From a virus (taxonomy: Duplodnaviria; Heunggongvirae; Uroviricota; Caudoviricetes): a stretch of 15,428 bases of DNA. Within the stretch, counting starts at the first letter, position 1, and each line of letters starts with the position of its first letter. A program made the translations under genes and the position numbers. Of the stretch, positions 1 to 15,428 are shown one piece after another. Location of the stretch: positions 1-15,428 of the IMG/VR virus record IMGVR_UViG_2778261504_000013, one strand, 5' to 3'. The notes under the pieces are model-generated. The model was not told the DNA's origin, ran no database searches, and saw nothing but the letters and a program-made list of their open reading frames with translations.

Positions 1-896
<896 letters not shown>

Positions 897-1539
897 CGAA
901 AGTATCTTAGCGGGCATGAAAATGGCAAATAACGGTCAAACATCGTGGCGTTGACACCGAAGCTGTAACTGAACCATTCTCTGATTTTGTCCATACGGTA
1001 CATGCTCTACCCATTCATTGAGGGGATTTGCTCTATTTAATTAGGAATAAGGTCGATTACTGATAGAACAAATCCAGGATACTGTGTTTAGTAATCAGAT
1101 TTGTTCGTGACCGATATGCACGGGCAAAACGGCGTGAGGTTGTTAGCGCAACCTCCTGCCACCCGCTTTCACGAAGGTCATGTGTAGAAGGCCGCAGCGT
1201 AACTATCACTGATGAATTCAGGACAGCCAGTGGCTACGGCTCAGTTTGGGTTGTGCTGTTGCTGGGCGGCGATGACGCCTGTACGCATTTGGTGATCCGG
1301 TTCTGCTTCCGGTATTCGCTTAATTCAGCACAACGATAAGAGCACTCAGTGCATTTAAGCCAAGCCCCATAAGGGAGAATGCTCTTACCTGTTGTGCAGA
1401 CAAAAAACCGCACGGCGGCGGGTTTAAGCTGTGTGGCGAAGTTACCCATCTTTACCAAGTATTCGGTAATAAAATAACTTGTGGTGTTCTCATTTTTATG
1501 CCGATAAAATAAACGGTCCACTTTCAAATGGAGCGATTC

Positions 1540-2460
1540 ATGATTTTTCTCAGAACTGAAAACGGCATCGAGAAACTTGAAAACTGGGAGAAAATTATAT
1601 CCAGACCAAACTTTGTCACCACTATAGACAAAGGAGTTCAACAACTTGAGGAGATAATTGGTTACTACAAATTTAAAGAAGAAATCCACTGTGGTCTAAC
1701 TGGTTGCAACCAACCACATCAAATGGGTTATATTGTAAAAACATCTAGTGGCATTGAAACCAACATCGGAAATAAATGTGGTAAAAACGAATTTGGTGTG
1801 GAATTTGGTGAAAACGTTCTTAGTTTCAATAAATTTATGCAACTCGAAACCAATCGGGAAATTATTAGCACCGCAAAAAGTAAATGTGAAGAGTGGCAAA
1901 AAAATATTGAAACGATACGAAATATCAAACCCACAATAGATTATCTATCTTCTACCATCGAAAATAGTAAAAATTCCAATTACTCCGGAAGACTTGGTGC
2001 TACAGAAATTCGTTTTTTGACCAAGAGCCAGACAGGCCTTGTAACCCTTTCTGAAGTGGAAACTGATAAGAATACCAAAACAATTCTGTTCGCAATGAAT
2101 GAACACATGCGCGAGTCTGGAGAGGCAATAAGTGAATTCTACATAGGAAAAGTATCATTTAGTCATGTTCTTTTACCAGAAAACAATCTTCGTGATTTTT
2201 TTGTTGCGCTCAAAGAAGATCTAAAAAAAATTCAGTGTATTGATCTACAAACAGCCCCAAGCCCAGAAATTTCTAATGTTGCCAAAATTGCCAGTTCAAT
2301 CGAAGAACGAATCAAGCGATTAAAAAAACTGAAACATGAAGCCAGTAAATTCCTAACTAAAAAAAATCTGCGTCCCATCGCAAACAAAATAAAATACTCA
2401 TCGACAGCGGATGAACTTGAATTCCATAATTTCGAACGCTTTTTAAAAGGGCTGAAATGA
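1540..2460 (+). CDS. Hypothetical protein, AT-rich orphan gene (about 306-310 aa), function unknown
   Basis: Long ORF of clearly lower GC than its flanks; GGAG lies 6 nt upstream of ATG 1540 (the alternative ATG 1528 has no SD); followed by a hairpin terminator. Contains a Cys/His cluster (HCGLTGCNQPHQ ... NKCGKNEFG). I recognise no family. Confidence 0.65.
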   Translation: MIFLRTENGIEKLENWEKIISRPNFVTTIDKGVQQLEEIIGYYKFKEEIHCGLTGCNQPHQMGYIVKTSSGIETNIGNKCGKNEFGVEFGENVLSFNKFMQLETNREIISTAKSKCEEWQKNIETIRNIKPTIDYLSSTIENSKNSNYSGRLGATEIRFLTKSQTGLVTLSEVETDKNTKTILFAMNEHMRESGEAISEFYIGKVSFSHVLLPENNLRDFFVALKEDLKKIQCIDLQTAPSPEISNVAKIASSIEERIKRLKKLKHEASKFLTKKNLRPIANKIKYSSTADELEFHNFERFLKGLK

Positions 2461-2461
2461 T

Positions 2462-2484
2462 AAAAGCCCCGAAAGGGGCTTCTA
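2462..2484. terminator. Bidirectional intrinsic terminator between the convergent orphan gene and Q
   Basis: Stem 2464-2470 (AAGCCCC) pairs with 2475-2481 (GGGGCTT) around a GAAA tetraloop; U-rich flank is better on the minus-strand side (TTTTA), so it may act as the terminator downstream of Q. Confidence 0.6.
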
Positions 2485-2574
2485 TCAAAATCATTTACGC
2501 ATTATTCCGCATGCTTAAAAGCATACATGACAGATTCGGACAAAATCAAGTGCAATGTCGCAAAAACCCTAAGC

Positions 2575-3405
2575 TTAGTTCACATCATCACCAAAACTTG
2601 TCACATTCTGAAAAGCAATATCGGCCTTACGCTCTTCCTGGTGGCAAATGTCAACCAGAGAATCAAGAAACGGCTTCCAATTACGCGTCCATGTCCTGAC
2701 ATGTAGCTCGGGTATCCGCTTCAGTACAACTTTATATACTGTGGTAGACGGTACCGTGGAAAATCCATTTCCGCTGCAACGTTCGCAGATTTTAAACACT
2801 GGCACACCACGCTCGCTTGTGGCTTTGCGGTCCAGTACCTCTCCCTTTCCACCACAACGACACCTGGCACTTATCACTCCCTTCCCTTTACATACATCGC
2901 AAACGACTGGTACAACTTCCGTTACCTCTGTCCATTTCTCCCAGTCTGACGGTCGAACAGCACGGGAGCGACTGGCCCAATATGGTGCTTTACCCCATGG
3001 GTATGAAACCTTACGAATGACCTGCTTACGGGGTGTTAGTCCGGTACCACTGCAACTATGGCATGTTACGCTGGTGTCTGCCGATCGGGAATACTCAGCA
3101 AAAGCAAACTGCGCCAGTACCAGCATACACCAGCCAAATTCACCACCAGCTGCTTTACGCACATTCTTCGGTGCAATTTCCATCGCGTGACGCGCCAGCG
3201 CCTGGACTGCCATCTGCTCATCAGTCTTGCTGATACCGGCCTTCCCGAAGAAGGCCGCCAAGCCAAACCGCTCACGATTGCTGGTGGTACCAATAGCCGC
3301 CATAACATCGGTGCCTGTAAGACGTTCCGGAGAGGTTCCTTTCACATCGTCGCCGATATACATTCCCTGAGGACTGAAGTATTTTAGCGATGCCTCAAGC
3401 TTCAT
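2575..3405 (-). CDS. Late antiterminator Q-like protein with four DnaJ-type CxxCxGxG zinc-finger repeats
   Basis: CHSCSGTG, CDVCKGKG, CRCGGKG and CERCSGNG repeats; last gene of the cro-side operon (the lambda Q position); start overlaps the upstream stop (TAATG). The family assignment is from memory of Q proteins of the Qin/phage 82 type and is not search-verified. Confidence 0.7.
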   Translation of the reverse strand: MKLEASLKYFSPQGMYIGDDVKGTSPERLTGTDVMAAIGTTSNRERFGLAAFFGKAGISKTDEQMAVQALARHAMEIAPKNVRKAAGGEFGWCMLVLAQFAFAEYSRSADTSVTCHSCSGTGLTPRKQVIRKVSYPWGKAPYWASRSRAVRPSDWEKWTEVTEVVPVVCDVCKGKGVISARCRCGGKGEVLDRKATSERGVPVFKICERCSGNGFSTVPSTTVYKVVLKRIPELHVRTWTRNWKPFLDSLVDICHQEERKADIAFQNVTSFGDDVN

Positions 3406-4262
3406 TATTCACACTCCCCAACCAGATTAAGAATAACCGCCGCGCCATTGTCTTTCATATATTCGCCCTTTCCGCTTGCCAAAAACCAACGACACACCTC
3501 CACGGCTTCAGCCCGTGTCACCGGTTTGATGGTCATCAGCAATTTTTCAAGGTAGCGCTCGCGGTCATATACCGATTCGTGATGCTCAGAGTAACCATAC
3601 TCATCGCCCTGTTCTTTAGACGCAGTGTGGCGAACACTGTAGAGCCAGTCCCAGTAAACAAACTCACGAACTACGTCTGACAATGTATGAGGCTCTGGCA
3701 GTACATCACGATAGCCATCAACATATGCACGACGCTGATCATCAATTTCATTCATACGGATGCCATCAATTCTGCCCGCTGTCTTCTCGGCTGCAGTCCA
3801 GCCCCAGAGATGATCGTCGATAAATTTCTGGGAAGACTGGATCACTCGCTCGGCTTCCACATCTTCGAGTGCTGCTTCATAGCTACCAAACGTAGCCCTG
3901 ACTGATGTTGCTTTTTTGATATTCTCCCGGGCGATCCTGATTGCCTGTGCCGGGTTATCCATGCCGATGGTACCGAAAGCAATCTGGAAAGGATCACCAC
4001 CATTCGCCAGCAGATAACGCGAATAGCGTTCCTGGGCCTCTTTTGGGGAAATTTTAATTTTCACCAGCGCAGCCTCAGCAGCATCCAGATGTGCGGGTTC
4101 GTTCAGACGGATAACCTCCAGCACCCAAAGATAAGCATCAGTCTGCTTATGCCCGGTGATTCTCCGTTGCTCTGGCAGGGGCTTGATGTTTGCGAGGGCG
4201 GAGCTGTACGCTGCCGTCGGGATGGTGAATAGTGCTTTATGTTCGTTGTTATCAGTACGCAT
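3405..4262 (-). CDS. Hypothetical phage protein (285 aa), in the nin-like position between primase and Q
   Basis: Translationally coupled at both ends (TAATG overlaps at 4260-4264 and 3403-3407); no recognisable motif. Confidence 0.65.
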   Translation of the reverse strand: MRTDNNEHKALFTIPTAAYSSALANIKPLPEQRRITGHKQTDAYLWVLEVIRLNEPAHLDAAEAALVKIKISPKEAQERYSRYLLANGGDPFQIAFGTIGMDNPAQAIRIARENIKKATSVRATFGSYEAALEDVEAERVIQSSQKFIDDHLWGWTAAEKTAGRIDGIRMNEIDDQRRAYVDGYRDVLPEPHTLSDVVREFVYWDWLYSVRHTASKEQGDEYGYSEHHESVYDRERYLEKLLMTIKPVTRAEAVEVCRWFLASGKGEYMKDNGAAVILNLVGECE

Positions 4263-5230
4263 TACGCAACCGCCTTTTTCTTATGGAAAACCAGCTCTCG
4301 AACCTGATCACCGTTCATGAGCATATTGTTGAAATCATCGTGATCCGGCCAGTACACGCTCACGCGCTGCAGGTCATTCTTTGCCATCAGATTGGCATGA
4401 GCACATTCGCAAGCCGCAGCCAGCCCGGTGGCGCTGTTCTCGTCACGGTCGGCAAAAATAATCAGGTGCAGAACACCAGCTGGTACGCGGAACTTTTTCA
4501 TAAAGCCGCTGTTAATGGTTGCCCAAGTGTTCACGTTATAAATCTGGTGCGCTGACAGCGCTGTTTCGATGCCTTCGGCGATACCCAGAGTGCTAGCAAC
4601 AGGAAACATGCGGATAGCTACAGAACGAGCGTGATCCAAATAGTTATCTTCCTGCAGGGATTTGAGGCGCTTTGCACTGCTACCGATATCTGCTTTTTTA
4701 TCACCATCAAGCAGAGTCTGGTGCAGATAGCACAACTCCCCTTTATCGTCCGTAGCAAGTGAATAAAGAGACTGGAACACACTCCCGTTGTGTCTCTGCC
4801 TGGCATTGAACCGGATCGCCTCAGCAGGAAGACTGAATATTCCACGAGAATTAAGATACGCTGCGCCGGATGTACCACGCAGTGCCTCCAGTTTTGAAAA
4901 CTTGCTCAATACCCGTTTGCGTAAGCTGGTGGCGCTGCTGGTTACCGGGATTTTAACCCGTTGGTAATCATTACCGATCAGGCGGTCTATTTCGGTACAA
5001 ATCTCGTTAAATGGCTTCGCCTGTGTCAGGGTGACAAGTTTCATACCATCGCCACTACCACATACACAGATCCACGTTCCTGCACCGTCGCGGTCATCAA
5101 TTCGGAACTTGCCACGTGCACCGCATACCGGGCATTCACCCTTGAAGTGATTTTTTCCTGTTATCGGCGGCAAGCCGAAGTGCTCTAATATTTCAGGCCA
5201 GCGGCCTTTCGCTGCAGCTGCTGTTTTCAT
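4262..5230 (-). CDS. DNA primase with N-terminal zinc-binding domain and Toprim domain
   Basis: CPVCG ... WICVCGSG zinc-binding motif; Toprim signatures IAEGIETALS and IIFADRDEN (DxD); coupled to the helicase gene. Confidence 0.8.
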   Translation of the reverse strand: MKTAAAAKGRWPEILEHFGLPPITGKNHFKGECPVCGARGKFRIDDRDGAGTWICVCGSGDGMKLVTLTQAKPFNEICTEIDRLIGNDYQRVKIPVTSSATSLRKRVLSKFSKLEALRGTSGAAYLNSRGIFSLPAEAIRFNARQRHNGSVFQSLYSLATDDKGELCYLHQTLLDGDKKADIGSSAKRLKSLQEDNYLDHARSVAIRMFPVASTLGIAEGIETALSAHQIYNVNTWATINSGFMKKFRVPAGVLHLIIFADRDENSATGLAAACECAHANLMAKNDLQRVSVYWPDHDDFNNMLMNGDQVRELVFHKKKAVA

Positions 5231-5231
5231 C

Positions 5232-6890
5232 TTACTGACTCAAACTGTTTATATTTTTCTGGAGTTGTTGCTTTGCTTGCATGATGCGCCAAGCCTCAGT
5301 GCCTATTGGCATCTCGCTTCGCTCACCTCGTTCCTGAGACAGAGGAATCGTTGCCTGCAATTTTTCTATAGTTCTCTGCGTCCGCTGACGGCCTTTGGCA
5401 AACCGAATCAGCTTGTGTTTGATGTAGTTACTTACTTCTGGGCTTATTTCCATCGGGAAACTGCTCAACCCATCAGGCCATTCACCGAATTTCTCCCTGA
5501 AAGTGTGAGCACACCATCCATCACTGACTGGACGCCCCAGCGAAGCACGCTGGCGCTGATAAAATTTGATCTGACTCCACCAGGACTGTTTCTCTGTCTT
5601 CGTCGACTGATGCTGATTTTTACCCAGCTTATTAAGTTTGCGGCTAGTGTCAGTATCAACATCTTCACCTCGCAGCGGCTTGTGTCCACATTTAGGGCAA
5701 ACATAGACGCCAGCTGGCTTCATGTAGTGGCATTGAGGGCATTCATGTGGCAGTTTTTCGGCCCGTTCCTCAACTGCGCGGCGCGCGCTTTCCTCCATGC
5801 CGTCAGACTTACCGGGAAGATCGTCGTACTCGATTGAATCCGGATAACCCAAACGGTGCACGGTGCCGCTGTGATCGAAGATAAGGCAGGACTCTTTACC
5901 CGGTGCGGTGCGCAGCCCACGCCCGAGTGCCTGCAACCAGCGAATTTCGCTTTTTGTTGGCCTGGCGTAGATGATGCAACGAACGTCACTATCAAAGCCG
6001 GCCACCAGAACGCCCACACTAACGATGATTTTCGTTGCACCAGTTTCAAAGCGGTGAATGATGGTCTGGCGCTCATCTACCGGAGTGTCTGCGGTCATTA
6101 CCTCAGCGTTAACACCTGCGAGGTTAAACTGGATTGTCAGGTAATTGGCGTGGGCTACGTTGACGCAGAAAGCGATGGTAGGTAGATCCCGACCATTCTC
6201 CAGCCAGTTCTGTACGATGTCGCCCACCAGCGTAGAGCCGCACATGATTTCAGCCAGCTGTGTTTCGTTGTAATCGCGGCCGTACTCAAGCGAAGATGTG
6301 GTTTTAACACCTTTCAGATCCGGCTTAGTTGGCGCGTAAAATTCGTATTTACTCAGATCGCCACGCTGGATTAACTCGCCGATGGTGGTCGGCTTAATCA
6401 GTCGGTCATAGTATTTGCCCAGGAACGGAGAAAACGGAGTACCCGACAGGCCAATCACCTTTACGCCTTTGCCGCGCAGACGTTCGATATCCTTCAGGAT
6501 GCGTTTTTTACGCAGGTGCGCTTCGTCGATAATCAGCAGATCGATATTTTCAGGAAAAACACGACGAATAAGCGTGTCAGTGCTGGCAATCTGAATTTTC
6601 CGGTCCGGATCGTAGTTCGGGTGATCCGCCCAGATATAACCGATTTCATCTCCAGGTAAACCATACTGCACGAACCGATTAGCCGTCTGACCAATCAGGA
6701 TGGTGTACGGAACACAGAACAGAACACGCATACCACGGCTGACAAAACCAGCAACGATGAAGGCTGCCAGACCCGTTTTACCGCTACCTGTTGGCGAGTA
6801 AACCATGAAGGTGTCGTTTGCCTTCCAGTCACGGCGCAACATGTTTAGCGCTCGCTCCTGTGCAAAATTCGGCGTGATTGTCAGCTGCAT
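5232..6890 (-). CDS. Superfamily 2 (DEAH-type) DNA helicase, replication module
   Basis: Walker A SPTGSGKTG, DEAH box IIDEAH, motif III LSGTPF, motif VI QALGRGLR; C-terminal zinc ribbon CPQCH ... CPKCGH. Confidence 0.85.
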   Translation of the reverse strand: MQLTITPNFAQERALNMLRRDWKANDTFMVYSPTGSGKTGLAAFIVAGFVSRGMRVLFCVPYTILIGQTANRFVQYGLPGDEIGYIWADHPNYDPDRKIQIASTDTLIRRVFPENIDLLIIDEAHLRKKRILKDIERLRGKGVKVIGLSGTPFSPFLGKYYDRLIKPTTIGELIQRGDLSKYEFYAPTKPDLKGVKTTSSLEYGRDYNETQLAEIMCGSTLVGDIVQNWLENGRDLPTIAFCVNVAHANYLTIQFNLAGVNAEVMTADTPVDERQTIIHRFETGATKIIVSVGVLVAGFDSDVRCIIYARPTKSEIRWLQALGRGLRTAPGKESCLIFDHSGTVHRLGYPDSIEYDDLPGKSDGMEESARRAVEERAEKLPHECPQCHYMKPAGVYVCPKCGHKPLRGEDVDTDTSRKLNKLGKNQHQSTKTEKQSWWSQIKFYQRQRASLGRPVSDGWCAHTFREKFGEWPDGLSSFPMEISPEVSNYIKHKLIRFAKGRQRTQRTIEKLQATIPLSQERGERSEMPIGTEAWRIMQAKQQLQKNINSLSQ

Positions 6891-6940
6891 TGTGCTGTCC
6901 CCGCAGTGATGAGATAATAATTTTGTGATGTGGTTTTCAT
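6881..6940 (-). CDS. Possible 19-aa upstream ORF (MKTTSQNYYLITAGTAQCS) coupled to the helicase start
   Basis: Strong SD GAGGAGGAA 5 nt upstream of ATG 6940; its stop overlaps helicase codons 2-3, while the helicase's own SD is weak. Too short to call on coding signal alone. Confidence 0.3.
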   Translation of the reverse strand: MKTTSQNYYLITAGTAQCS

Positions 6941-7001
6941 GGATTCCTCCTCACATGGCTGGTGGTCTCCCCAAAGGCTGCCAGCCCCTTTCCGAATCAA
7001 C

Positions 7002-7370
7002 TCACTTAAATTTCGTCGCACGAATAACGTCAATTCCGTTCTCGCTATATCGAAGAGGGTGCTTACCATCCCTGAGCAGGACAAAACCTGACATCCCCTC
7101 AGGTAGCTGAGCCAGCTTCATCAACGAACGGTTGCGGGGAGACTTCTTATCGACCTCAATGGCACACTGCTGGCCGTCTGATGATGTAACCAAGCAATCA
7201 ATAAACCCTTTACGACCACCGCTAATGCTGATGCTGAAATTGCGTTGCAGGTGGTATCCCTGAGACTTGATTTTTTTCTGCATCACATAATCGAAAACGA
7301 CTTTGTCATCGGAGCGGATGAATTGCTCTTCCAGGAGAGCGATTAAATTTTGCTTCAGGTCTTCACTCAT
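7002..7370 (-). CDS. Small protein with possible PD-(D/E)xK / VRR-NUC-like nuclease core, upstream of the helicase
   Basis: Segment GRKGFIDCLVTSSDGQQCAIEVDKKS ... Q ... GFVLL resembles the VRR-NUC core; the track's start at 7406 is TTG, so ATG 7370 is preferred. Family assignment is low confidence. Confidence 0.5.
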   Translation of the reverse strand: MSEDLKQNLIALLEEQFIRSDDKVVFDYVMQKKIKSQGYHLQRNFSISISGGRKGFIDCLVTSSDGQQCAIEVDKKSPRNRSLMKLAQLPEGMSGFVLLRDGKHPLRYSENGIDVIRATKFK

Positions 7371-7619
7371 ACTTTTTATCCATCTTGTACTAGCTTTCTG
7401 GTACAATCGTTTTTTCAGGGGTATCCCCCTTTAGATCGAGATCTACCTAACCTATGTACCCGTCTGTTGGAAAAGCCTGTTCCAGTGCTTCGCACTAACA
7501 CACGGGCACTCCTCCCCCTCCCCTCCTCTCACTGAATTTTGCATGTACTCCTTAGCTAGTACACAAAATGCAATGAGATTTGGGATTCAGCCACCGGACA
7601 CCTTTAAGCCCGGTACCAA

Positions 7620-7913
7620 TCAGGAGCGCGATTGCGTTCCTGCCAGGGGCGGCTGAGTTGTATACCCCTGTAAAGCTCTGCCCTGATTTCTCACGAACAG
7701 GCGGAGCCTTGTGTTTGCTTCATGCCTTGCTCTGTTCTCCTTACGGAATGAAACAGGCTCAGCGTCAAAAGTGATTTCGTATACCTCCGCATATTTCAGG
7801 GCGACCTTCCGTCTCAGTGACGGAGGCAGCCCCTGTAACTGCTGCTGAATCCACTCTTTGTCTGCCTGGCAGTACCTAGATGGCATCTCTGTCTGAACGT
7901 AATTCTGGGACAT
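7620..7913 (-). CDS. Hypothetical early protein (97 aa) immediately downstream of cro
   Basis: ORF with GGAGGTGA upstream of ATG 7913; overlaps the cro 3' end by 38 nt; in the cII-like position but with no resemblance to lambda CII. Confidence 0.5.
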   Translation of the reverse strand: MSQNYVQTEMPSRYCQADKEWIQQQLQGLPPSLRRKVALKYAEVYEITFDAEPVSFRKENRARHEANTRLRLFVRNQGRALQGYTTQPPLAGTQSRS

Positions 7914-8163
7914 ACAAGCCCTTCACCTCCCCCGTGCGCGCTAAGCTTGGATGTGGAAAAAGCTCTGGTAGGTCTGGACGAAATTCATACGCTTGGATCT
8001 TTCCGTCTACAGCTGCAACCAATAACGGCACAAATTCTGGTGAAATCTTGTTCTTGCAGTTCAACCAATCGCAGACTGTTGACTGGGCCTTTCCGCATCG
8101 CTTGGCTAAGGCTTGCTGACTTCCAAGAATCTCAATAGCTTTCTCTATGGCTTTATGTTTCAT
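7876..8163 (-). CDS. cro: Cro-like HTH repressor (Cro/YdaS type)
   Basis: 95 aa, HTH SQQALAKRCGKAQSTVCDWLN; divergent from the cI-like gene; AGGAGA SD upstream of ATG 8163 (the track's upstream extension is less likely). Confidence 0.7.
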   Translation of the reverse strand: MKHKAIEKAIEILGSQQALAKRCGKAQSTVCDWLNCKNKISPEFVPLLVAAVDGKIQAYEFRPDLPELFPHPSLARTGEVKGLYVPELRSDRDAI

Positions 8164-8185
8164 AATCGCATCTCCTATTGAACGC

Positions 8186-8214
8186 ATAATAACAACAGGA
8201 AAAGCGATATTCAA
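8186..8214 (-). promoter_or_regulatory. Candidate PR-like sigma70 promoter for cro (TTGAAT-17-TATTAT on the minus strand)
   Basis: Read on the minus strand: -35 TTGAAT (8209-8214), 17-nt spacer, -10 TATTAT (8186-8191), about 25 nt upstream of the cro start. Confidence 0.5.
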
Positions 8215-8230
8215 CGTTAAACCTAGAATA

Positions 8231-8250
8231 TTTATCGGAAAGCCGATAAA
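8231..8250. promoter_or_regulatory. Operator: perfect 20-bp palindrome TTTATCGGAAAGCCGATAAA in the cro-cI intergenic region
   Basis: 8+4+8 inverted repeat seen directly; its 14-bp core ATCGGAAAGCCGAT matches two sites at the promoter downstream of cI (11/14 to the 9028-9041 site). Confidence 0.55.
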
Positions 8251-8282
8251 CTAGCCAAGATAGAGAGGGGAGGAAAATCGCA

Positions 8283-8975
8283 ATGACATTTTCAGAACGA
8301 CTTGATTTAGCTATGCGCAACGCAAAATTTACGCAAGGTAGGCTGGCCAAAGAAGTGGGTATGGCTCAGTCCAGTGTTAATCAACTACTTAACAAAGCCA
8401 ACGGTTCCAGAAAAACAGTCGAAATAGCAAAAGTTTTGGGCGTTAACCCGGAATGGCTCGCATCGGGTGTTGGCCCAATGGAAATCGTGACCTCTGCAGA
8501 CTCACACCAAATACGTAACATTTCTGAAGATTGGGTTACTGATTCGTATGTCGTGGATGTTTTAGACATCAGATATAGTTGCGGACCTGGTAGTTATAAC
8601 TCTGATTTTCCTGACATTGTCAGATCTATAGCTATAGAACCAGGATACGCATCAAGAGTTTTTGGCGGCAGACCAGCATCAGCAATCAAAGCAATAAACG
8701 CCCACGGCGACAGTATGAAAGGCACAATAGACCCTGAAGACTTGGTATTTGTAGATGTATCAGTTCGCACATTTAATGGTGATGGTATATACGCCTTTAC
8801 ATACTCTGGAACATCGCACATCAAAAGACTTCAAAAAATCAAAGATACTCTAACGGTGATATCTGACAACCCAGCTTACAAGGATTGGGCTATCGAACCG
8901 GAAGACTTCGAACAACTTCACATTGACGGAAAAGTAATTGTCAGTTGGCCTATGACACTACACCGTTTTGCATAA
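8283..8975 (+). CDS. cI: CI-type prophage repressor: N-terminal HTH plus C-terminal S24 (LexA-like) autopeptidase
   Basis: HTH QGRLAKEVGMAQSSVNQL; S24 catalytic Ser in AHGDSMKG and Lys in HIKRL; possible Cys-Gly cleavage site (YSCGPG); strong SD GGGGAGGA; divergent from cro. Confidence 0.85.
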   Translation: MTFSERLDLAMRNAKFTQGRLAKEVGMAQSSVNQLLNKANGSRKTVEIAKVLGVNPEWLASGVGPMEIVTSADSHQIRNISEDWVTDSYVVDVLDIRYSCGPGSYNSDFPDIVRSIAIEPGYASRVFGGRPASAIKAINAHGDSMKGTIDPEDLVFVDVSVRTFNGDGIYAFTYSGTSHIKRLQKIKDTLTVISDNPAYKDWAIEPEDFEQLHIDGKVIVSWPMTLHRFA

Positions 8976-8993
8976 GCAAAAATCATTTAACCC

Positions 8994-9018
8994 GCCCACT
9001 CTTAAGTGGGCTTTTTTT
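8994..9018 (+). terminator. Intrinsic terminator after cI
   Basis: GCCCACT-CTTA-AGTGGGC perfect stem-loop (8994-9011) followed by T7 (9012-9018). Confidence 0.7.
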
Positions 9019-9027
9019 GGAAGAAAA

Positions 9028-9069
9028 ATCGATAAACCGATTGACAGGTGAAATCGGTAAACCTATTAT
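9028..9069 (+). promoter_or_regulatory. PL-like early promoter (TTGACA-17-TATTAT) with two overlapping operator copies
   Basis: -35 TTGACA 9041-9046, 17-nt spacer, -10 TATTAT 9064-9069; operator-like 14-mers ATCGATAAACCGAT (9028-9041, abutting the -35) and ATCGGTAAACCTAT (9053-9066, over the spacer and -10). Confidence 0.6.
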
Positions 9070-9109
9070 CTTGACATAGGTATCGAACTCACCAAAGCAA
9101 TTATAGAGG

Positions 9110-9529
9110 ATGAGAAAAATGTCATCGTATATGGGGTTACCAACAAATCAGCACGATGCTCTTGAGAATATTCAGCTCTTAGTAGGGGCTGGTGCACTAC
9201 TGTATAGCAGCAATAACCCTGAGTTAATTGAACTTGCCAGCTCCATCCTGGCTGTAACTCAAAAATATAGCCTCACCGCGTCACGTTTATGCAAACAAAA
9301 TTTAGCTATTAATTCCCAGAATCGGATTCGCACCCAACGCGAAGCCTGCGGCTTAACAACCGCCGAACTCGCCAGGCTGCTCGATCTCGATGAAGAAATC
9401 ATCATCCAGTGGGAGAGCGGAGAGTATGAACCAACTATCAGTATGCTTATCCCTCTGGCTAATGTTTTTGGCTGTGACCCAATGTGGTTATTGACTGGTG
9501 CTTATAAACAAAATCAGGAGGAAGCATAA
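9110..9529 (+). CDS. XRE-family HTH protein (C-terminal HTH), first gene of the PL-like operon
   Basis: C-terminal HTH TQREACGLTTAELARLLDLDEEIIIQWESGEYEPT; the start may be ATG 9119, which has better SD spacing; N-terminal domain unknown. Confidence 0.65.
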   Translation: MRKMSSYMGLPTNQHDALENIQLLVGAGALLYSSNNPELIELASSILAVTQKYSLTASRLCKQNLAINSQNRIRTQREACGLTTAELARLLDLDEEIIIQWESGEYEPTISMLIPLANVFGCDPMWLLTGAYKQNQEEA

Positions 9530-9530
9530 G

Positions 9531-9722
9531 ATGAAAATGTTCAAAGGCCTTACCAACGAACCGGAGACAGTTTTTCATCACATTGCCGTACTGCTTGAAG
9601 CGGGGTTAATCATTTCGGCTTCCGGTGATGAAGAATGTGATGAACTTTCGGATGATATCTTTCTACTGGCACAACAATACGCCAGAAGCGCATGCGATGC
9701 ATTTAAGGAGCAAAGAACATGA
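9531..9722 (+). CDS. Small acidic hypothetical protein (63 aa)
   Basis: AGGAGG SD; acidic stretch SGDEECDELSDD; stop overlaps the next start (ATGA). Confidence 0.5.
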   Translation: MKMFKGLTNEPETVFHHIAVLLEAGLIISASGDEECDELSDDIFLLAQQYARSACDAFKEQRT

Positions 9723-9910
9723 AAACTCCATTAAATATTCTTGAGGAAGTGGCAGCACAAATAAAAGAGAATACATCAATGCTTGAATTTATATTTAAGA
9801 ATTCGCCCGACCAAGGAGAGACAGACGATTATTTATGCTGTCTCATTCGCTCCATGAATAAGACCTGTGAAATGGCTTACGAGTATATAGAAACACTACG
9901 CAACGAATAA
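9719..9910 (+). CDS. Small acidic hypothetical protein (63 aa)
   Basis: AAGGAG SD 8 nt upstream; translationally coupled to the preceding ORF. Confidence 0.5.
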   Translation: MKTPLNILEEVAAQIKENTSMLEFIFKNSPDQGETDDYLCCLIRSMNKTCEMAYEYIETLRNE

Positions 9911-10094
9911 AGAACTCTCAATAAAAAATCACACATAAAAACATGACGGCCTCTGGTCGGGGGTTTTCACAACCAGAAAATAATGGTGATGCATGAAAAA
10001 CAGAAGTGCTTATAAAACCGCATTATTAATGGCTAATGCAGGATACTGGTCAGTTGCAATACTGTTTCTCAGGAAAGCATACGGGAAATAACAA

Positions 10095-10454
10095 ATGACA
10101 CATGAACCCATTAATACATATCGTCGCCGTATAGCTGTTGCGGCACTCCATCGAATAAAACGTAAAACAGGTGTTAATCTGCTTATTGTTGACCTTCCTG
10201 ATGGGAACATTACGACCATAGAAATAACTGAACAGTTTATAAACCAGTTGCTGTTACGCTTCGAAGGTATTACCCGTGGCGAATTGGGCCGGGTGGAGGG
10301 TGAAACCGAAATCCACACTGCATACCAGAATGCTATCGGGATTAATCAACATACTGAATACCTGACTGAAACCGGAAAGTTAATTATAGACAACCTTTTT
10401 CAAGAGGTTATTGATTACGCGAAAGAAAAATATATCAGCGGAGGAATTAACTGA
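10095..10454 (+). CDS. Hypothetical protein (119 aa)
   Basis: ORF in the operon after a 184-bp gap; weak SD; stop overlaps the next start (TGATG). Confidence 0.55.
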   Translation: MTHEPINTYRRRIAVAALHRIKRKTGVNLLIVDLPDGNITTIEITEQFINQLLLRFEGITRGELGRVEGETEIHTAYQNAIGINQHTEYLTETGKLIIDNLFQEVIDYAKEKYISGGIN

Positions 10455-10669
10455 TGGCTAATTTATCCCCTGTATCTGTTGTGCACGAAAAAGTGCAGAT
10501 CGTTATGACAATTGAAAATGGCCAAGTCACAGGTGTCTGCAAAGTCCGCGATGGCGAGCTGATTGCCAGCATGGATACATTCATACGGCTGGCAGAAAGA
10601 GCGGGGTATCAGATAACAGCACCTGCTCAGGAGGAAACCGGTGGCATTAACAGCAACACGCATTCCTGA
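10454..10669 (+). CDS. Hypothetical small protein (71 aa), possible partner of the downstream toxin-like ORF
   Basis: Coupled to the upstream gene and overlaps the downstream ORF by 29 nt, the usual antitoxin-toxin geometry; no recognisable motif. Confidence 0.45.
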   Translation: MANLSPVSVVHEKVQIVMTIENGQVTGVCKVRDGELIASMDTFIRLAERAGYQITAPAQEETGGINSNTHS

Positions 10670-10862
10670 GTGGGTGCACCTGCAGGCGGTCCGTGTTCTC
10701 CGCCAGTTCAGAGCCAGACGAATTCATCCCTGTCGTATGCACGGCTCCGGAAACCTGAGTCTGAGGGTTAATCGCCGCTGGCGGCTGCTGTCCCGAGACG
10801 GCGGCCAGAACTGGGAAGTAATGAGCCATGAACGATACAGCAAAGTTAAGGACCGGAAATGA
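10641..10862 (+). CDS. Candidate RelE/HigB-superfamily toxin-like protein (73 aa, GTG start)
   Basis: AGGAGG 7 nt upstream of GTG 10641; C-terminal segment LSLRVNRRWRLLSRDGGQNWEVMSHERY resembles the RelE/HigB core (LRV ... EVMTHKEY). Shorter than typical family members, so it may be degenerate. Confidence 0.4.
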   Translation: MALTATRIPEWVHLQAVRVLRQFRARRIHPCRMHGSGNLSLRVNRRWRLLSRDGGQNWEVMSHERYSKVKDRK

Positions 10863-10892
10863 ACAATAAATCTTCAAACCAAAAGGAGAGTA

Positions 10893-11474
10893 TTGATGAT
10901 TAATTCAACCATTACCCCTGAACCTACATTAACAGGCATCCGTTTTGGTAATCGAATTATTGGCTATTCAACTGCGGTTCGCCAGATCGACAACGGTAAC
11001 TATGACAAACGAATTCCGGACGGGCTCGATCTGATAGCTTGCATTATGGAAGGGATTGAAAGCGGCTGGTTTATGCCGTGTATTGAAAAACAAATCATCC
11101 TATGGCGCTGGCTTGTTGTCGCCGTGTTCATTGCTGAGGAGCAGGAGAAGAACGGGACTGTCGATGTTCAGAATGACAAGGGCGGCGTAGATACAGCCGT
11201 TGTATACACGGGAAAACCCGGTTCAATCAGCATTTATCCGTGGTCTGAGCGCTTCGCGCTCGCTAACCATATCGAGGCGGGCGCAATTGAAAAATACGGG
11301 CCTGACGTTGGTCAGCAGATGGCGCTGCGTATGTATCAGGACATGGTTGTAACTGACGAGAAATGCGGATTCAGGCTGTCAGCGATGGGCCGGGAGGGAC
11401 TCAACATACTACATGACAGCTTCATTGAACTGATTCAGAAAGACGGTATGCCAGACATGCCGGTTATGCACTGA
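10893..11474 (+). CDS. Hypothetical protein (193 aa)
   Basis: AAGGAG SD 7 nt upstream; no recognisable domain. Confidence 0.6.
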   Translation: MMINSTITPEPTLTGIRFGNRIIGYSTAVRQIDNGNYDKRIPDGLDLIACIMEGIESGWFMPCIEKQIILWRWLVVAVFIAEEQEKNGTVDVQNDKGGVDTAVVYTGKPGSISIYPWSERFALANHIEAGAIEKYGPDVGQQMALRMYQDMVVTDEKCGFRLSAMGREGLNILHDSFIELIQKDGMPDMPVMH

Positions 11475-11485
11475 GGTGGACGAAA

Positions 11486-12235
11486 ATGAACATAGTAACG
11501 ATCAATAACAAACAGCTTCCGGCAGTCGAATATCGCGGTCAGCGTGTTGTGACGCTGGCAATGATTGATGAAGTCCACCAGCGCCCGGAAGGTACCGCCC
11601 GTGCTGCGTTTAACCGCAACCGTTCTCACTTTATCAAAGGGGTGGATTTTCTTGAAATGACTGCGGACGTAATACGTACGGAGTCACTTTCTGATGCCTT
11701 TGCCGCGCGAACTGCCAAAGGGATCATTCTTTTCGAGTCTGGTTACCTGATGTTGACGAAGCCTTTTAACGATGCTCTTGCATGGCAGGTTCAGCGCGAA
11801 CTGGTTAACAGCTATTTCCGAACTCACGCGCCGCTGACGGAAATGGAGATGATCGCTGCAATGGCCGCCGATGCCGTTCGCCAGCAGAAGCGCCTGAGTC
11901 ATGTTGAAGAGAAGATCGAAACGGTCACCAAAGCTGTGGAGAACATCAAACGCGGCACAATGCGCACCGGATATGTCGGTTACCGCCAGGTGGTAGCCAA
12001 AAGCGGAATGAGTGACGCCAAGTGTCGGAATCTGGTCAACGCCTACCACATCCCTACCGACACGCACGAATTTATGACTCCGGACGGTCTGTTGTCTCGC
12101 AGGGCTGTCGTCGAGCTTGAGACATTTATGGCGGCGTTCCACCAAATGATGTCAGAGGCTGAACCACGCGGCACACGCTGGTATCACCCGAAGATGGGGC
12201 TTTTTCAGGTAATCGGATGGGAGGATAAAGCATGA
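11486..12235 (+). CDS. ORF6N-domain protein (antirepressor / Rha-like regulator family)
   Basis: N-terminal LAMIDEVHQRPEGTARAAFNRNRSHFIKGVDFLEMT matches the ORF6N pattern (..kRN..rF..g.dF..lt); GAGGTGGA SD; stop overlaps the next start (ATGA). Confidence 0.65.
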   Translation: MNIVTINNKQLPAVEYRGQRVVTLAMIDEVHQRPEGTARAAFNRNRSHFIKGVDFLEMTADVIRTESLSDAFAARTAKGIILFESGYLMLTKPFNDALAWQVQRELVNSYFRTHAPLTEMEMIAAMAADAVRQQKRLSHVEEKIETVTKAVENIKRGTMRTGYVGYRQVVAKSGMSDAKCRNLVNAYHIPTDTHEFMTPDGLLSRRAVVELETFMAAFHQMMSEAEPRGTRWYHPKMGLFQVIGWEDKA

Positions 12236-12801
12236 TCATCCAGTCAAAACTTATTCGCGCCGCTCTGGTGTGCGCTGCTAAAAACGACGTTCGTTATTAC
12301 CTGAACGGTCTTCACATCACGCCAAAACATATTGAGGCAACCAATGGTTTCGTAGCACTGCGCATGACTCACGGCATCCGGACGAAGAAAAACATCATTG
12401 TCCAGTTCGAAGGTGGCGTCCCGGCCAAAGCCGAAACGACAGAGCTGATTTTTAGTAAAGAGCCGATCGCTGTTCATCGCGACCAGTTTCAGCGCCGGCT
12501 GTCCATTACCGGCATTAAATTGGTGGACGGTTGTTTTCCGGATTTGGAACGCATCATTCCGAAAAAATTTGACCTCTGTACACACCCGGTGATCCAGGCG
12601 GGTTACCTGAGTTATCCAGAGAAGATGTTTGGTCGTGAGCGTAAATTTATTCCCGTCCAGTTACGTTCCTCCGGTGACGGGCAAGCGGTCAGAATTCAGT
12701 TTGATTCCATCATCAACTCAATGTATGGCAATCCTGAATTTGTTGTGATGCCTTGTCGTGATCATGGCGATTTCAATGTGGCTCAGGAGCATCCGGAATG
12801 A
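12232..12801 (+). CDS. Truncated DNA polymerase III beta-clamp (DnaN) homologue, domain II plus partial domain III
   Basis: Three collinear matches to E. coli DnaN as I recall it: NDVRYYLNGL vs QDVRYYLNGM; IKLVDGCFPDLERIIPKKFD vs SKLVDGRFPDYRRVLPKNPD; EFVVMPCRD vs AYVVMPMRL. Only 189 aa, lacking domain I. Confidence 0.7.
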   Translation: MIIQSKLIRAALVCAAKNDVRYYLNGLHITPKHIEATNGFVALRMTHGIRTKKNIIVQFEGGVPAKAETTELIFSKEPIAVHRDQFQRRLSITGIKLVDGCFPDLERIIPKKFDLCTHPVIQAGYLSYPEKMFGRERKFIPVQLRSSGDGQAVRIQFDSIINSMYGNPEFVVMPCRDHGDFNVAQEHPE

Positions 12802-12836
12802 AAATCGAATACCAGGACGCCGCAGGAGGTGAATCA

Positions 12837-12920
12837 ATGAGCTGGCCTGATGCAATCGTAACTCTGGGGGTGGTATTCGCAGTAGCGTTTGTTGTGTTCT
12901 CGATTTGTCGATGGGGATAA
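12837..12920 (+). CDS. Small single-pass membrane peptide (27 aa, MSWPDAIVTLGVVFAVAFVVFSICRWG)
   Basis: Strong SD AGGAGGTGA 6 nt upstream of ATG; hydrophobic core typical of a transmembrane helix; below the size cutoff of the ORF track. Confidence 0.4.
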   Translation: MSWPDAIVTLGVVFAVAFVVFSICRWG

Positions 12921-12924
12921 CCAC

Positions 12925-13092
12925 ATGTTCGCTTTGATTCAACGCGGTCAGATATACACGGACAGAGCTGGATACCCCGTGGTGATTACTCGCATCACTG
13001 AGCACTCAGTGTTCTTTCGACGGATGGACGGACGATCCGGGCGGGTACGCATTGGTGAGTTAAACTGCCTGTTCGAACATATTGACCACTAG
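12925..13092 (+). CDS. Small hypothetical protein (55 aa)
   Basis: ATG 12925 with a GGGGA upstream; internal start within the track ORF 12889-13092. Confidence 0.4.
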   Translation: MFALIQRGQIYTDRAGYPVVITRITEHSVFFRRMDGRSGRVRIGELNCLFEHIDH

Positions 13093-13170
13093 GAGTACCG
13101 CAAAATTCTCGCGGACACTGAGCAGGAAAAGCACCTGAAAAAATTACGAGCCATAAAAAGGAAGTAAAGA

Positions 13171-13317
13171 ATGAATAAAGCATTTGAACGATGGGTCCAC
13201 CAGCGTTACGGCAATCGCTATGACCTGACGCGAGATGTTGACGGCTTCTACTGTCGTGAAGTTGTGAAGCGAATGTTTGAAGTGTGGTGCCACTGCCGTG
13301 GGCTGAGTGTTGTGTGA
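13171..13317 (+). CDS. Small Cys-containing hypothetical protein (48 aa)
   Basis: AAGGAAG SD; ORF MNKAFERWVHQRYGNRYDLTRDVDGFYCREVVKRMFEVWCHCRGLSVV; sits just upstream of xis. Confidence 0.4.
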   Translation: MNKAFERWVHQRYGNRYDLTRDVDGFYCREVVKRMFEVWCHCRGLSVV

Positions 13318-13325
13318 GGTGATGT

Positions 13326-13535
13326 ATGGGGCTGGATTGCGTGCCTATATCAACCTACTGCCGCGACGCGGGAGAAACGGTTGATGCCGTTAACAAACGG
13401 ATACAAAGAGGAATATGGAAAGAAGGGGTTCATGTATTAAAAGTCGATGGAGTTAAAGAACGCTGGGTCGACTTAATAGAGGTTTCAAAATGGGCAAGAA
13501 AGAACAAGGATTATTATCTCTGCCAAGAGGAGTAA
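13326..13535 (+). CDS. xis: Excisionase-like protein
   Basis: 69-aa ORF immediately upstream of and overlapping int by 46 nt, as in lambda xis-int; GAGGTGA SD; small basic winged-helix-like sequence. Confidence 0.6.
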   Translation: MGLDCVPISTYCRDAGETVDAVNKRIQRGIWKEGVHVLKVDGVKERWVDLIEVSKWARKNKDYYLCQEE

Positions 13536-14668
13536 CTATTCGTAAGCATAAAACTGCTTCAACACTAGTTATCACTTTCACATATAAAGGGGTTCTTTGC
13601 AGGGAGCCCCTGTCTCGGCTTGAGGCAAATACACGTGGTATTAAATATGCTGAGCGCCTGCTAGGGGAGATACAAAATCAGATCGCCAGTGGAACGTTTG
13701 AATATGCGAAATATTTCCCCAGTTCCAAAAAACTGGAGTTATTCGGTATAGTAAAGAAAACCAAAAATATTAAGTCCTATCTTGATGAATACCTGAAAAT
13801 TTGCATGAACCGCAATCTGTCGCCGTCAACCATTGGCGGTTACGAAAAATGTATATCAGCACTATCAGAGCTACATAAACTACATGTAACAGAATTGACG
13901 CCTGCGGTACTAAAAAATTGGATAGCCAGCCGAAAAACTAAGCTGAAAACAATCAGGAATAACCTGTCATTTCTGCGCAGCGCCATTGATGAGGCTGTAA
14001 CTGATGGCCTGTTGACTATTAACCCGGTAACTCTTGTCAGCGCCAGCCGGTATCACGTGGTCGACAGTAAACCGAACGCCGACGATTACGAAGTTGATCC
14101 GTTTGCGCCTGCGGAAACCAGTGCCATATATCAGCACTGCAAGTATCAGGAATGGCAGAATCTGTTCCGCTTCGCCTTCAATACAGGGCTACGCAGCTCT
14201 GAGCTATGCGCATTACGTTGGACCGATATCGACTTTATAGGTAATACAGCGCACATACAGGCGGCCAGTGTCGTAGGGGTACTTAAAGGCACCAAGACAA
14301 AAGCCGGTACCCGTAAGGTGGAGCTGAACAGTGAGGCGCTGGCGGCCCTGCAGGCGCAGAAGCAATACACCTTTATGAAAAGTGAGTTCATATTCAGCGA
14401 TCCGAAAACGGGAGATCCCTGGACGAACGCCGACGCTATCCGTAAAAAAGCATGGGTGCCGACCCTAAAAAAAGCTGGTGTGCGCTACCGTAACCCGTAC
14501 CAGACGCGCCACACATTCGCCACCAGACACATTAGCCAGGGTGTAAACCTTTTCTGGCTTGCCGGGCAGATGGGGCATAAGGGGCCGGAAATGCTGTTCC
14601 GCAATTACGGTAAATACCTGGCTGAATACGACGGGAAAACCGCAATGGAAGCTGGAATGAAGAAGTGA
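13490..14668 (+). CDS. int: Tyrosine recombinase (phage integrase)
   Basis: Catalytic signature TGLRSSEL (Arg), TRHTFATRH (His-x-x-Arg), HKGPEMLFRNYGKY (His and Tyr nucleophile); N-terminal arm-binding-like region; last gene of the operon. Confidence 0.9.
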   Translation: MGKKEQGLLSLPRGVTIRKHKTASTLVITFTYKGVLCREPLSRLEANTRGIKYAERLLGEIQNQIASGTFEYAKYFPSSKKLELFGIVKKTKNIKSYLDEYLKICMNRNLSPSTIGGYEKCISALSELHKLHVTELTPAVLKNWIASRKTKLKTIRNNLSFLRSAIDEAVTDGLLTINPVTLVSASRYHVVDSKPNADDYEVDPFAPAETSAIYQHCKYQEWQNLFRFAFNTGLRSSELCALRWTDIDFIGNTAHIQAASVVGVLKGTKTKAGTRKVELNSEALAALQAQKQYTFMKSEFIFSDPKTGDPWTNADAIRKKAWVPTLKKAGVRYRNPYQTRHTFATRHISQGVNLFWLAGQMGHKGPEMLFRNYGKYLAEYDGKTAMEAGMKK

Positions 14669-14674
14669 TTTGAA

Positions 14675-14706
14675 GAAAAAACCCGGCAAATGCCGGGTCT
14701 TTTTGA
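14675..14706. terminator. Bidirectional intrinsic terminator between int and the convergent 196-aa gene
   Basis: ACCCGGCA / TGCCGGGT inverted repeat (14681-14698) flanked by an A-run upstream and T5 downstream. Confidence 0.7.
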
Positions 14707-14709
14707 TGG

Positions 14710-15300: not shown

Positions 15301-15428
15301 CCCAGTTGATACACATCCAAGTAGTACTGAAACTCACCAGAACTGACAATGGGTGATGCTGCCAACTTACTGATTTAGTGTATGATGGTGTTTTTGAGGT
15401 GCTCCAGTGGCTTCTGTTTCTATCAGCT

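Follow-up and report, generated by a model that had tools for sequence, protein, structure and literature searches.

Several well-described replication systems are started by a transcript. Replication of phage lambda requires transcription near its origin, and folded or G-rich transcripts start replication in the ColE1 RNA II system, at the T4 origins ori(uvsY) and ori(34), and at the mitochondrial conserved sequence block II (CSB II). RNA II of ColE1/pMB1 has to fold correctly, and one of its G-rich segments probably keeps the RNA-DNA hybrid in place at the origin. At ori(uvsY) and ori(34), the transcript forms a persistent R-loop that starts replication, and UvsW, an SF2-type helicase, acts on this R-loop. 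More generally, clusters of guanines on the non-template strand nucleate R-loops. Here, we describe a non-coding element that invites comparison with these systems. It occupies positions 7371-7619 of a 15,428-nt stretch of DNA from a member of the Caudoviricetes (IMG/VR record IMGVR_UViG_2778261504_000013, positions 1 to 15,428; "the window" in what follows), which is the immunity and replication region of a lambdoid prophage of the Fels-1/phi467 type. The gap is a single conserved non-coding cis element of a replication module that comprises the gene for a 97-amino-acid (97-aa) protein, the element itself, an optional putative nuclease gene, an SF2 helicase gene and a Toprim primase gene. We infer that the element is most likely a replication control region or the origin of this uncharacterised phage replication module.

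The early-right operon of the prophage is encoded on the minus strand. From cI to Q, the locus reads as follows.

8283-8975, plus strand: LexA-like cI gene
8214-8186, minus strand: pR-like promoter
7876-8214, minus strand: YdaS/Cro-like gene
7620-7913, minus strand: gene for the 97-aa protein (phrog_852, no Pfam family)
7371-7619: non-coding gap of 249 bp between two annotated minus-strand coding sequences
7002-7370, minus strand: 122-aa gene (phrog_1347)
5232-6890, minus strand: SF2 RadD-like helicase gene
4262-5230, minus strand: zinc-ribbon/Toprim primase gene
between the primase gene and Q, minus strand: 285-aa gene
2575-3405, minus strand: Q

A sequence-only reading of the window had put the non-coding stretch at 213 bp, but the downstream gene starts at 7370 and not at 7406, and the gap is correspondingly longer. 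Pattern scans of viral, genome and metagenome collections, together with a scan anchored on the 97-aa protein family, located the element in 181 related loci from Escherichia, Salmonella, Klebsiella, Yersinia and metagenomes. The gap was recovered by blastn from Fels-1, from Klebsiella phages and from 83 of the 5426 complete E. coli genomes. Its identity across genera is 75-99%, and in an alignment of nine sequences a conserved core of about 65-110 nt is less variable than the flanking coding sequence. The linkage to the module is tight on both sides. Of the 168 loci with room for it, 161 have a homolog of the 97-aa gene immediately before the element; for three of the seven misses (L083, L084 and L096) the gene was confirmed to lie just past the distance cut-off, and the other four are presumed to be the same. 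Downstream, 154 of 156 loci have a homolog of the helicase gene in the same orientation. When viral loci were retrieved via the 97-aa protein, 68 of the 80 with complete downstream sequence matched the covariance model of the element at the same offset. Ten inspected non-matching viral loci carry a divergent version of the element, and two loci are cut by the contig end.

This conserved region has gone without annotation. In 58 E. coli genomes whose region is nearly identical, the RefSeq annotation has no RNA feature in the gap, and our literature search on the Fels-1 genes STM0899-STM0901, or on small RNAs at that place, found nothing relevant. A search of the whole window against Rfam release 15 (E-value mode) gave no match in 7371-7620 and two weak matches elsewhere, which argues against a known RNA family, and ARAGORN reported no tRNA or tmRNA gene in the window. 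The element thus has neither an Rfam family nor an annotation and is probably new, with a real chance of constituting a new RNA family. We also considered whether it is a plasmid replicon, but the single plasmid match, a record of 439 kb, is listed with the E. coli genomes too and is therefore uninformative. A protein-coding explanation failed as well. The one small open reading frame (ORF) of note (MQNSVRGGEGEE..., 30 codons, minus strand from 7549) is not preserved in homologs: its start codon is lost in Combat2C1, KY171 has an in-frame TAA, and S792 has an indel of +2. Moreover, a G-run within the gap varies from 4 to 8 nt among close relatives, giving indels that are not multiples of three, which weighs against coding.

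In its position, the element resembles the lambda origin, since it lies in the early-right operon, downstream of cro and of the gene in the cII position, where read-through from pR is expected. In contrast to lambda, whose ori lies inside gene O and consists of four iterons and an AT-rich region, there is no O or P homolog here and no AT-rich region. Family scans matched none of the genes of the module to a known O-, P-, DnaA- or Rep-type initiator family, and the 97-aa and 285-aa proteins are unassigned. In this respect the module is like the "Eru" regions of Shiga-toxin (Stx) phages. These prophages look lambdoid and have, in place of O and P, a helicase or primase together with a protein of unknown function. 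The papers on Eru regions (Llarena et al.; PMC8951638) classify them by their proteins only and describe no non-coding element or origin, and the replication mechanism of the non-lambdoid Eru modules of Stx phages is stated as unknown (PMC8951638). The nearest relatives of the window are Escherichia phage phi467, Salmonella phage Fels-1, two Klebsiella phages and many E. coli prophages. One of the latter, in E. coli STEC308 (locus L001, positions 187-1146), is 98% identical to window positions 6900-7955 over about 1 kb. It has the gene order of the window from the cro region to Q, and carries stxA2 (Stx2e-type) and a tRNA-Arg gene just 3' of Q. The presence of stxA2 beyond Q implies that the replication module also serves Shiga-toxin phages.

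The second line of evidence is the fold of the strand that is in the sense orientation for the operon. Scans of the gap found neither a sigma-70-type promoter nor a sense-strand intrinsic terminator, and for this reason we place the element within the early-right operon transcript, as far as sequence scans can tell. The sole terminator-like call in the gap consists of one of its palindromes (palindrome 1, below) and a T-run; it is on the antisense strand, and the spacing from stem to T-run is not conserved. The scans also speak against an independent small RNA gene, which the sequence-only reading had entertained. In the order of the sense strand, the predicted architecture is H0, H1 with palindrome 2 at its apex, an unpaired twin G-run, a P1-P2-P3 junction, AUAGGUUAGGUA-GAUC, a small hairpin, an A-run and palindrome 1. 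The individual features are:

7593-7614, minus strand: hairpin H0 in the minimum free energy (MFE) fold, 6 nt after the UGA stop codon (7620-7622) of the 97-aa gene
7520-7585, minus strand: long hairpin H1 in the MFE fold of the window, with palindrome 2 at the apex; its 3' strand is the start of the polypurine tract
7544-7563: palindrome 2, TGTACTAGCTAAGGAGTACA
7509-7530, minus strand: polypurine tract of 22 nt, with the twin G-run GGGG-A-GGGGG at 7514-7523
7456-7509, minus strand: core junction P1-P2-P3, covariance model R1
7439-7455, minus strand: nearly invariant segment, AUAGGUUAGGUA followed by GAUC; relatives have one or two GATC sites
7410-7429, minus strand: hairpin H5 (GGGGG-AUA-CCCC, 7418-7429) and A-run (7410-7415)
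7385-7406: palindrome 1 (H6), TTGTACCAGAAAGCTAGTACAA on the sense strand, hairpin-forming, 14 nt upstream of the start codon of the 122-aa gene

The suspicion that the gap is structured held up well. As RNA, the sense strand (255 nt) has an MFE of -92.9 kcal/mol, with a folding z-score of -5.4, compared with -71.1 kcal/mol and a z-score of -3.8 for the antisense strand. As single-stranded DNA, the sense strand also folds strongly (z-score -5.6). The helices of the core contain 136 G.U pairs versus 8 A.C pairs in the aligned versions, and this excess of G.U over A.C indicates that it is the mRNA-sense strand that folds, whether in the form of RNA or, in the DNA, as a displaced non-template strand.

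Covariation backs both the core junction and H0. In alignment A6 (43 distinct sequences), 89.8% of the cells of the core helices pair, versus 29-58% in slid controls, a figure that has to be read with the knowledge that the core alignment was fitted to the covariance model and hence leans towards structure. Ten of the 22 core pairs change on both sides. In P1 (GUGCCCGU/ACGGGUAC, 7502-7509 with 7456-7463), this holds for six of the eight pairs, and one class may have an entirely different helix from another (GUGCCCGU/ACGGGUAC, GGAGUUG/CAACUCC and UUGAUCU/AGAUCAA). P2, the hairpin AGUGC-GAA-GCACU at 7484-7496, contains GCGAAGC and shows changes from UA to CG, and P3, the hairpin GGAA-CAGGCUU-UUCC at 7469-7483, does not vary. 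For H0, a gapless MAFFT alignment of 38 distinct variants pairs in 89% of cells, versus at most 49% in slid controls, five of six pairs change on both sides, and the covariation score of 0.587 compares with 0.236 for shuffles and was reached by none of 500 shuffles. Altogether, 52 distinct H0 variants were found, and some classes have two tandem copies of H0. Its stem is variable and its 10-nt loop, CUUAAAGGUG (7599-7608), is nearly invariant.

An equivalent long hairpin at the position of H1 is predicted in 14 class representatives, most clearly in 12, despite their differing sequences. In the invariant segment, a weak hairpin P4 (AGGUU/GAUCU, within 7439-7455) may form; in it, two G.U pairs are invariant and another pair covaries (AU in 21, UA in 7 and GC in 5). 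The small GGGG/CCCC hairpin pointed out from the sequence alone is present (GGGGTATCCCC at 7418-7428), although its sequence is variable between relatives and it is the neighboring A-run that is retained. Taken together, compensatory changes occur on the strand that is predicted to be transcribed, as would be expected of a structured cis-acting RNA.

These observations would also fit an element that acts purely at the RNA level, as a leader or intercistronic domain of the mRNA that controls the downstream replication genes, with replication starting elsewhere. This is the nearest rival to an origin, and we regard it as only slightly less likely. It might work through binding of the 97-aa protein to the CUUAAAGGUG loop or loops, through processing or stability of the transcript, or through protection of a 250-nt untranslated stretch against Rho. 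A sense-strand-specific structure with covariation is what such a leader should have, and bases of loops and junctions that are invariant typically make contacts with protein or tertiary contacts within the RNA. H0 begins only 6 nt past the stop codon of a small basic protein, whose basic helix could bind nucleic acid; the missing internal promoter and terminator place the element within the operon transcript; and the sense strand has much G, little C and a high degree of structure, the reverse of what Rho needs for loading. However, the next gene varies (the 122-aa gene, an HNH endonuclease gene or the helicase gene itself), so that there can be no fixed switch of a ribosome-binding site, and there is no strong intrinsic terminator between the element and Q on which the leader could act. 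A leader also leaves unexplained the perfect palindromes of double-stranded DNA type, including those with covarying loop positions (TAGACGTCTA versus TAAGCGCTTA), the conserved GATC sites, and the constant retention of the element in the module.

A further feature of the element is the polypurine tract. A 25-nt pyrimidine run on the plus strand had been noted earlier; the run is there, but it measures 22 nt (7509-7530), being interrupted by an A at position 7531. All other purine or pyrimidine runs of the window are shorter, and none of 500 shuffles reached 22 nt. On the sense strand, all 94 distinct versions of the element that were inspected contain a twin G-run of G4-8, a 1-3 nt spacer and G4-8, a count that is partly circular because a G-run filter had been used to choose these versions. 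The second G-run is unpaired in the fold predicted for the window. Among near-identical prophages, G-run lengths differ by 1-2 nt (6, 7 or 8 G; window 7514-7523, L166/L167/L169, L003/L007), as expected for slippage-prone homopolymers. The G-quadruplex (G4) that the sequence-only reading suggested looking for is weak in the window, which holds a two-tetrad motif at most. A canonical G4 motif is absent from the window and found in only 50 of the 94 versions, roughly half; we therefore rejected the canonical quadruplex, and the universal feature is the twin G-run. Judging from the sequence, the locus would have what an R-loop origin needs, namely transcription across a stretch whose G-rich non-template strand allows a stable RNA-DNA hybrid: the element belongs to the pR operon, no terminator precedes it, and its 22-nt purine run carries the conserved twin G-run, of which the second run is predicted to be unpaired.

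Three known systems resemble this arrangement, and we treat the likenesses to ColE1, T4 and CSB II as analogies and not as family membership. As in ColE1/pMB1, a long sense transcript with several stem-loops would be made at the start of the replication functions of the replicon. Unlike in ColE1, there is no sequence or Rfam similarity to RNA II, we found no promoter for an antisense RNA of the RNA I type, and the phage has its own helicase and primase. The likeness to CSB II (G6AG8), a primer site with an R-loop and a hybrid G-quadruplex, lies in two adjacent G-runs, 1-3 nt apart, on the non-template strand; the differences are another organism, another polymerase, and the quadruplex situation just described. 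The likeness to T4 lies in the helicase, since the module contains an SF2 helicase and not a hexameric replicative one. Here again there are differences: the middle promoter and the AT-rich unwinding element of the T4 origins are both absent, and the helicase is closest to RadD and not to UvsW.

With these analogies in mind, we tentatively propose that the element is a transcription-activated origin of the R-loop type, or a preprimer, a possibility that we consider worth pursuing while judging it to be short of probable. Upon loss of the repressor, RNA polymerase would read through from pR. The nascent RNA would fold in a way that leaves the twin G-run free, and the free G-run could then anchor a stable RNA-DNA hybrid (R-loop) on the C-rich template. 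Either this hybrid or the strand that it displaces, which can form hairpins, would be the entry site for the non-hexameric SF2 helicase and the primase, possibly joined by the 97-aa protein bound to the invariant loop or the core. A dimeric factor bound at the two flanking palindromes would limit or regulate the region. Such a mode of entry would explain how the module can lack a recognisable initiator of the lambda O or DnaA type. The idea of an origin fits because of the obligatory linkage of the element to the helicase-primase module, and R-loop formation is proposed in order to explain together the linkage to a module without a recognisable initiator, the strand-specific fold, and the unpaired non-template G-run bracketed by palindromes. 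The fuller version, in which a family of temperate enterobacterial phages that includes Fels-1 and Stx2e-type prophages shares a start without a recognisable O-, DnaA- or Rep-type initiator, made up of a folded pR transcript of about 250 nt, a twin-G R-loop, entry of SF2 helicase and Toprim primase, and a 97-aa protein that reads an invariant RNA loop, would be the equivalent in a bacterial virus of priming by ColE1 RNA II and at CSB II and is, in our estimate, doubtful as a whole.

The palindromes that frame the core raise the question of whether the element is read as RNA at all. The two inverted repeats reported from the sequence alone, TTGTAC-N10-GTACAA at 7385-7406 and TGTACT-N8-AGTACA at 7544-7563, are confirmed by direct reading. 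Both fit the pattern TGTAC-N10-GTACA, which occurs exactly twice in the 15.4-kb window, even with one mismatch allowed, and both times in the gap. In shuffled sequences the pattern has a mean of 0.21 matches, and only 4 of 200 shuffles reach two matches anywhere. The 7-mer CTAGTAC is likewise confined to the two palindromes within the window, where it is present in inverted orientation, and the consensus of this palindrome family is GTACTAG-N4-CTAGTAC. The repeats are also conserved in relatives: about 55 of 68 distinct homologous versions have GTAC-N10-GTAC at the same two offsets. In other classes, both palindromes are jointly replaced by different palindromes or by tandem 8-mers (TTAGACGTCTAA, TTTAGCCGTCTAAA). 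Some palindromes keep their symmetry through changes at positions that would be in the loop of an RNA hairpin (TAGACGTCTA vs TAAGCGCTTA), and half-sites decay on either strand, with equivalents of both U.G and C.A. The symmetry at loop positions and the decay on either strand suggest recognition of duplex DNA by a dimer.

One could therefore imagine that duplex DNA is all that matters, that is, that palindromes and core bind phage or host proteins as an origin or operator, and that RNA folding is a side effect or serves to avoid Rho. Two palindromes of the same type, 18-20 bp long, flank the core at fixed offsets and, as described above, they are exchanged together, covary even where an RNA hairpin would loop them out, and decay on either strand. 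We nevertheless consider this improbable. The covariation of H0, H1 and P1 with its bias towards G.U over A.C is inexplicable by duplex recognition. The distance from center to center of the palindromes is 147-158 bp and does not keep helical phasing, and we therefore rejected DNA looping with a fixed helical phase. Furthermore, none of the proteins that we compared covaries with the type of palindrome. The comparison included cro (N-terminal sequence), the 97-aa protein, the variable gene X and the helicase, with cI and the primase outside the systematic comparison. The 97-aa protein was rejected as specificity partner because it is about 97% identical across loci with different palindromes, cro because one cro type occurs together with different palindromes, and the helicase because neither its N-terminal nor its C-terminal identities follow the palindrome type; the converse case, like palindromes with unlike proteins, was also seen. 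The putative 122-aa nuclease was rejected as the palindrome binder because palindromes persist in many loci without its gene. For the proposal that the repeats are paired binding sites, this means that the positional conservation and joint replacement of the palindromes speak in its favor, and that a partner is missing among the compared proteins.

Loci without GTAC palindromes offer an observation of their own. In L004, L083 and L120, the flanks of the core are tandem in-register 8-mers like the "met box" of MetJ, AGACGTCT, for example AGACGTCC ATATTTCT GAATGGCT TGACGTCT. The resemblance may be accidental or a hint at a binder of the ribbon-helix-helix type.

The lambdoid context brings antitermination to mind, and the element does share with the put sites of HK022 and the nut sites of lambda the character of a cis-acting folded RNA in a lambdoid early operon. 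H0, with its variable stem and conserved loop, is moreover boxB-like. On this account the element would let pR transcription reach Q, either as RNA alone (put type) or through a boxB-like hairpin bound by the 97-aa protein (nut type). In its favor, no N homolog was recognised in the lambdoid early operon, where only two ORFs of the pL operon were scanned, and H0 with its conserved loop adjoins the gene for a small basic protein. Nearly everything else argues against it, and we regard it as the least likely of the accounts considered here. Put and nut sites differ from the element in size and architecture, and they are not single-copy. An unfiltered search of the window with the covariance model identified only one copy, the next-best match (10.5 bits) being the same locus on the opposite strand, so that neither the pL operon nor any other part of the window holds the second member of an HK022-type put pair. 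Model R1 found nothing above 6.6 bits in HK022 between 22.0 and 36.0 kb, a range that takes in the part of the early region from the IS903 copy to the O-like gene, in which put is expected, and HK022 was not among the hits of a blastn search of the gap against 50,697 phage records. At about 250 nt, the element is much larger than put (about 70 nt), and there are no clear intrinsic terminators between pR and Q. A lambda-type nut site was rejected because the string CGCUCCUGA, which resembles boxA (CGCUCUUA-like), is not conserved and because there is no second loop of the H0 type near pL. In addition, the 10-nt loop of H0 (CUUAAAGGUG) is not a GNRA-like pentaloop as in boxB, and the 97-aa protein is predicted to be a folded three-helix protein, in contrast to the disordered arginine-rich peptide of N.

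A further alternative is an RNA that is cut from the operon transcript and acts in trans, either as a base-pairing small RNA with the invariant GGUUAGGUAGAUC as seed or as a sponge for a protein such as CsrA. The invariant single-stranded motifs would suit such an RNA, as would the purine tract with its many GGA (3-6 motifs) and Shine-Dalgarno-like motifs. Prophage small RNAs are also common in pathogenic E. coli (bioRxiv 10.64898/2026.05.13.724894). Yet a stable 3' end would call for a terminator or U-tail on the sense strand, and the scans found neither these nor a sigma-70-type promoter; the element matches no Rfam family, Csr and Rsm included; and the strict physical linkage to replication genes is not expected of a trans regulator. 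Altogether, this makes a trans-acting RNA very unlikely.

Returning to an origin or replication control region as the preferred reading, several findings weigh against it and have to be set beside the evidence for it. Both origin function and the formation of an R-loop are entirely things that we infer. The hallmarks of a classical origin are missing: there is no AT-rich unwinding element, the GC content being 0.40-0.53 across the gap; no direct-repeat iterons were noticed on reading the aligned sequences, with no repeat finder run on the window; and by eye there is a single weak match to a DnaA box (7 of 9 positions, about 7375-7383), with no DnaA-box search having been run. This DnaA-box-like string lies in the leader of the optional 122-aa gene. 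Compared with an iteron origin, the class to which the window belongs shows two inverted palindromes and some relatives show tandem 8-mers resembling AGACGTCT, but no initiator that covaries with these repeats was found: the 97-aa protein and the helicase do not, gene X is optional, and primase and cI are the proteins not systematically compared. The absence of a covarying partner for the palindromes counts in the same direction. The junction is not uniform either, as some classes lack P2 and have the 3' strand of P1 re-paired downstream. As the phage encodes its own primase, a transcript primer is not strictly needed. Finally, a strand-specific structure of RNA type with invariant loops is explained equally well by regulation that is purely at the RNA level.

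Whichever reading is correct, the element matters beyond this one prophage. Replication of Eru-type modules in Shiga-toxin and Salmonella prophages sets toxin gene dosage and lysogeny stability, and the element is the most conserved sequence of one such module, unannotated everywhere, and a precise experimental target of about 250 bp. The strength of its conservation and covariation is surprising for an unannotated gap and offers a way into an unstudied replication system. If it is an origin, it would represent a new way of starting lambdoid replication, coupled to transcription and dependent on RNA structure, and would explain a module without recognisable initiator. If it is a regulatory RNA instead, it would found a new RNA family of considerable size, one that has a conserved protein-sized partner. 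In both cases, hundreds of prophages can be annotated for the element by means of the covariance model and the alignments.

The 97-aa protein has a conserved basic helix, R-x-ENRARHEAN-x-RLR, and its homologs were found in Enterobacterales only, all of them named hypothetical. Its AlphaFold2 model consists of three helices and is of low confidence (pLDDT 62), and searches with Foldseek, against PDB sequences, with profiles and against NCBIfam gave nothing usable. On the other side of the element, the slot of the 122-aa gene is variable and optional: a homolog is present in 59 of 156 loci, and the others have a NUMOD4/HNH endonuclease gene or nothing in its place. The 122-aa protein has no Pfam, NCBIfam or PDB sequence match. 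Read by eye, it contains a string like D...E-x-K (GFIDCLV...AIEVDKK), which suggests a candidate PD-(D/E)xK nuclease. The NUMOD4/HNH homing-endonuclease-like gene directly follows the element in E. coli TUM1886 (L004, positions 838-1440) and also in L016, L083 and L091; the conserved element may be the homing target of a gene of this type.

Some smaller observations concern sequence motifs in and near the module. The window has GATC sites at 7434-7437 and 7440-7443. In relatives without an intervening gene (L199, L202, L213, L166 and others), a conserved palindromic motif, GGTT(T/C)TTCCTGGAAGAGTGA, lies 20-40 nt before the helicase start codon, and this motif is absent from the equivalent place in the window, 6891-7001.

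Elsewhere in the window, a strong terminator-like hairpin with a T-run directly follows the 3' end of cI (8994-9011, plus strand), and a promoter, TTGACA-17-TATTAT, with 11 of 12 consensus matches (9041-9069, plus strand), precedes the early-left genes on the plus strand; these are probably the cI terminator and pL, respectively. About 190 nt 3' of the Q gene and on the same strand, a terminator-like hairpin with a T8 run (2366-2385, minus strand) is a candidate for a terminator that is overridden by Q. Finally, positions 14678-14717 gave a weak and partial match to RsmY (20.6 bits, compared with a gathering score of 57), which covers only a GC-rich hairpin with a U-tail. As the hairpin ACCCGGCAAATGCCGGGT at 14681-14698 was called as a terminator on the plus strand and lies between convergent ORFs, the match looks like a terminator, possibly a bidirectional one, rather than an Rsm RNA.

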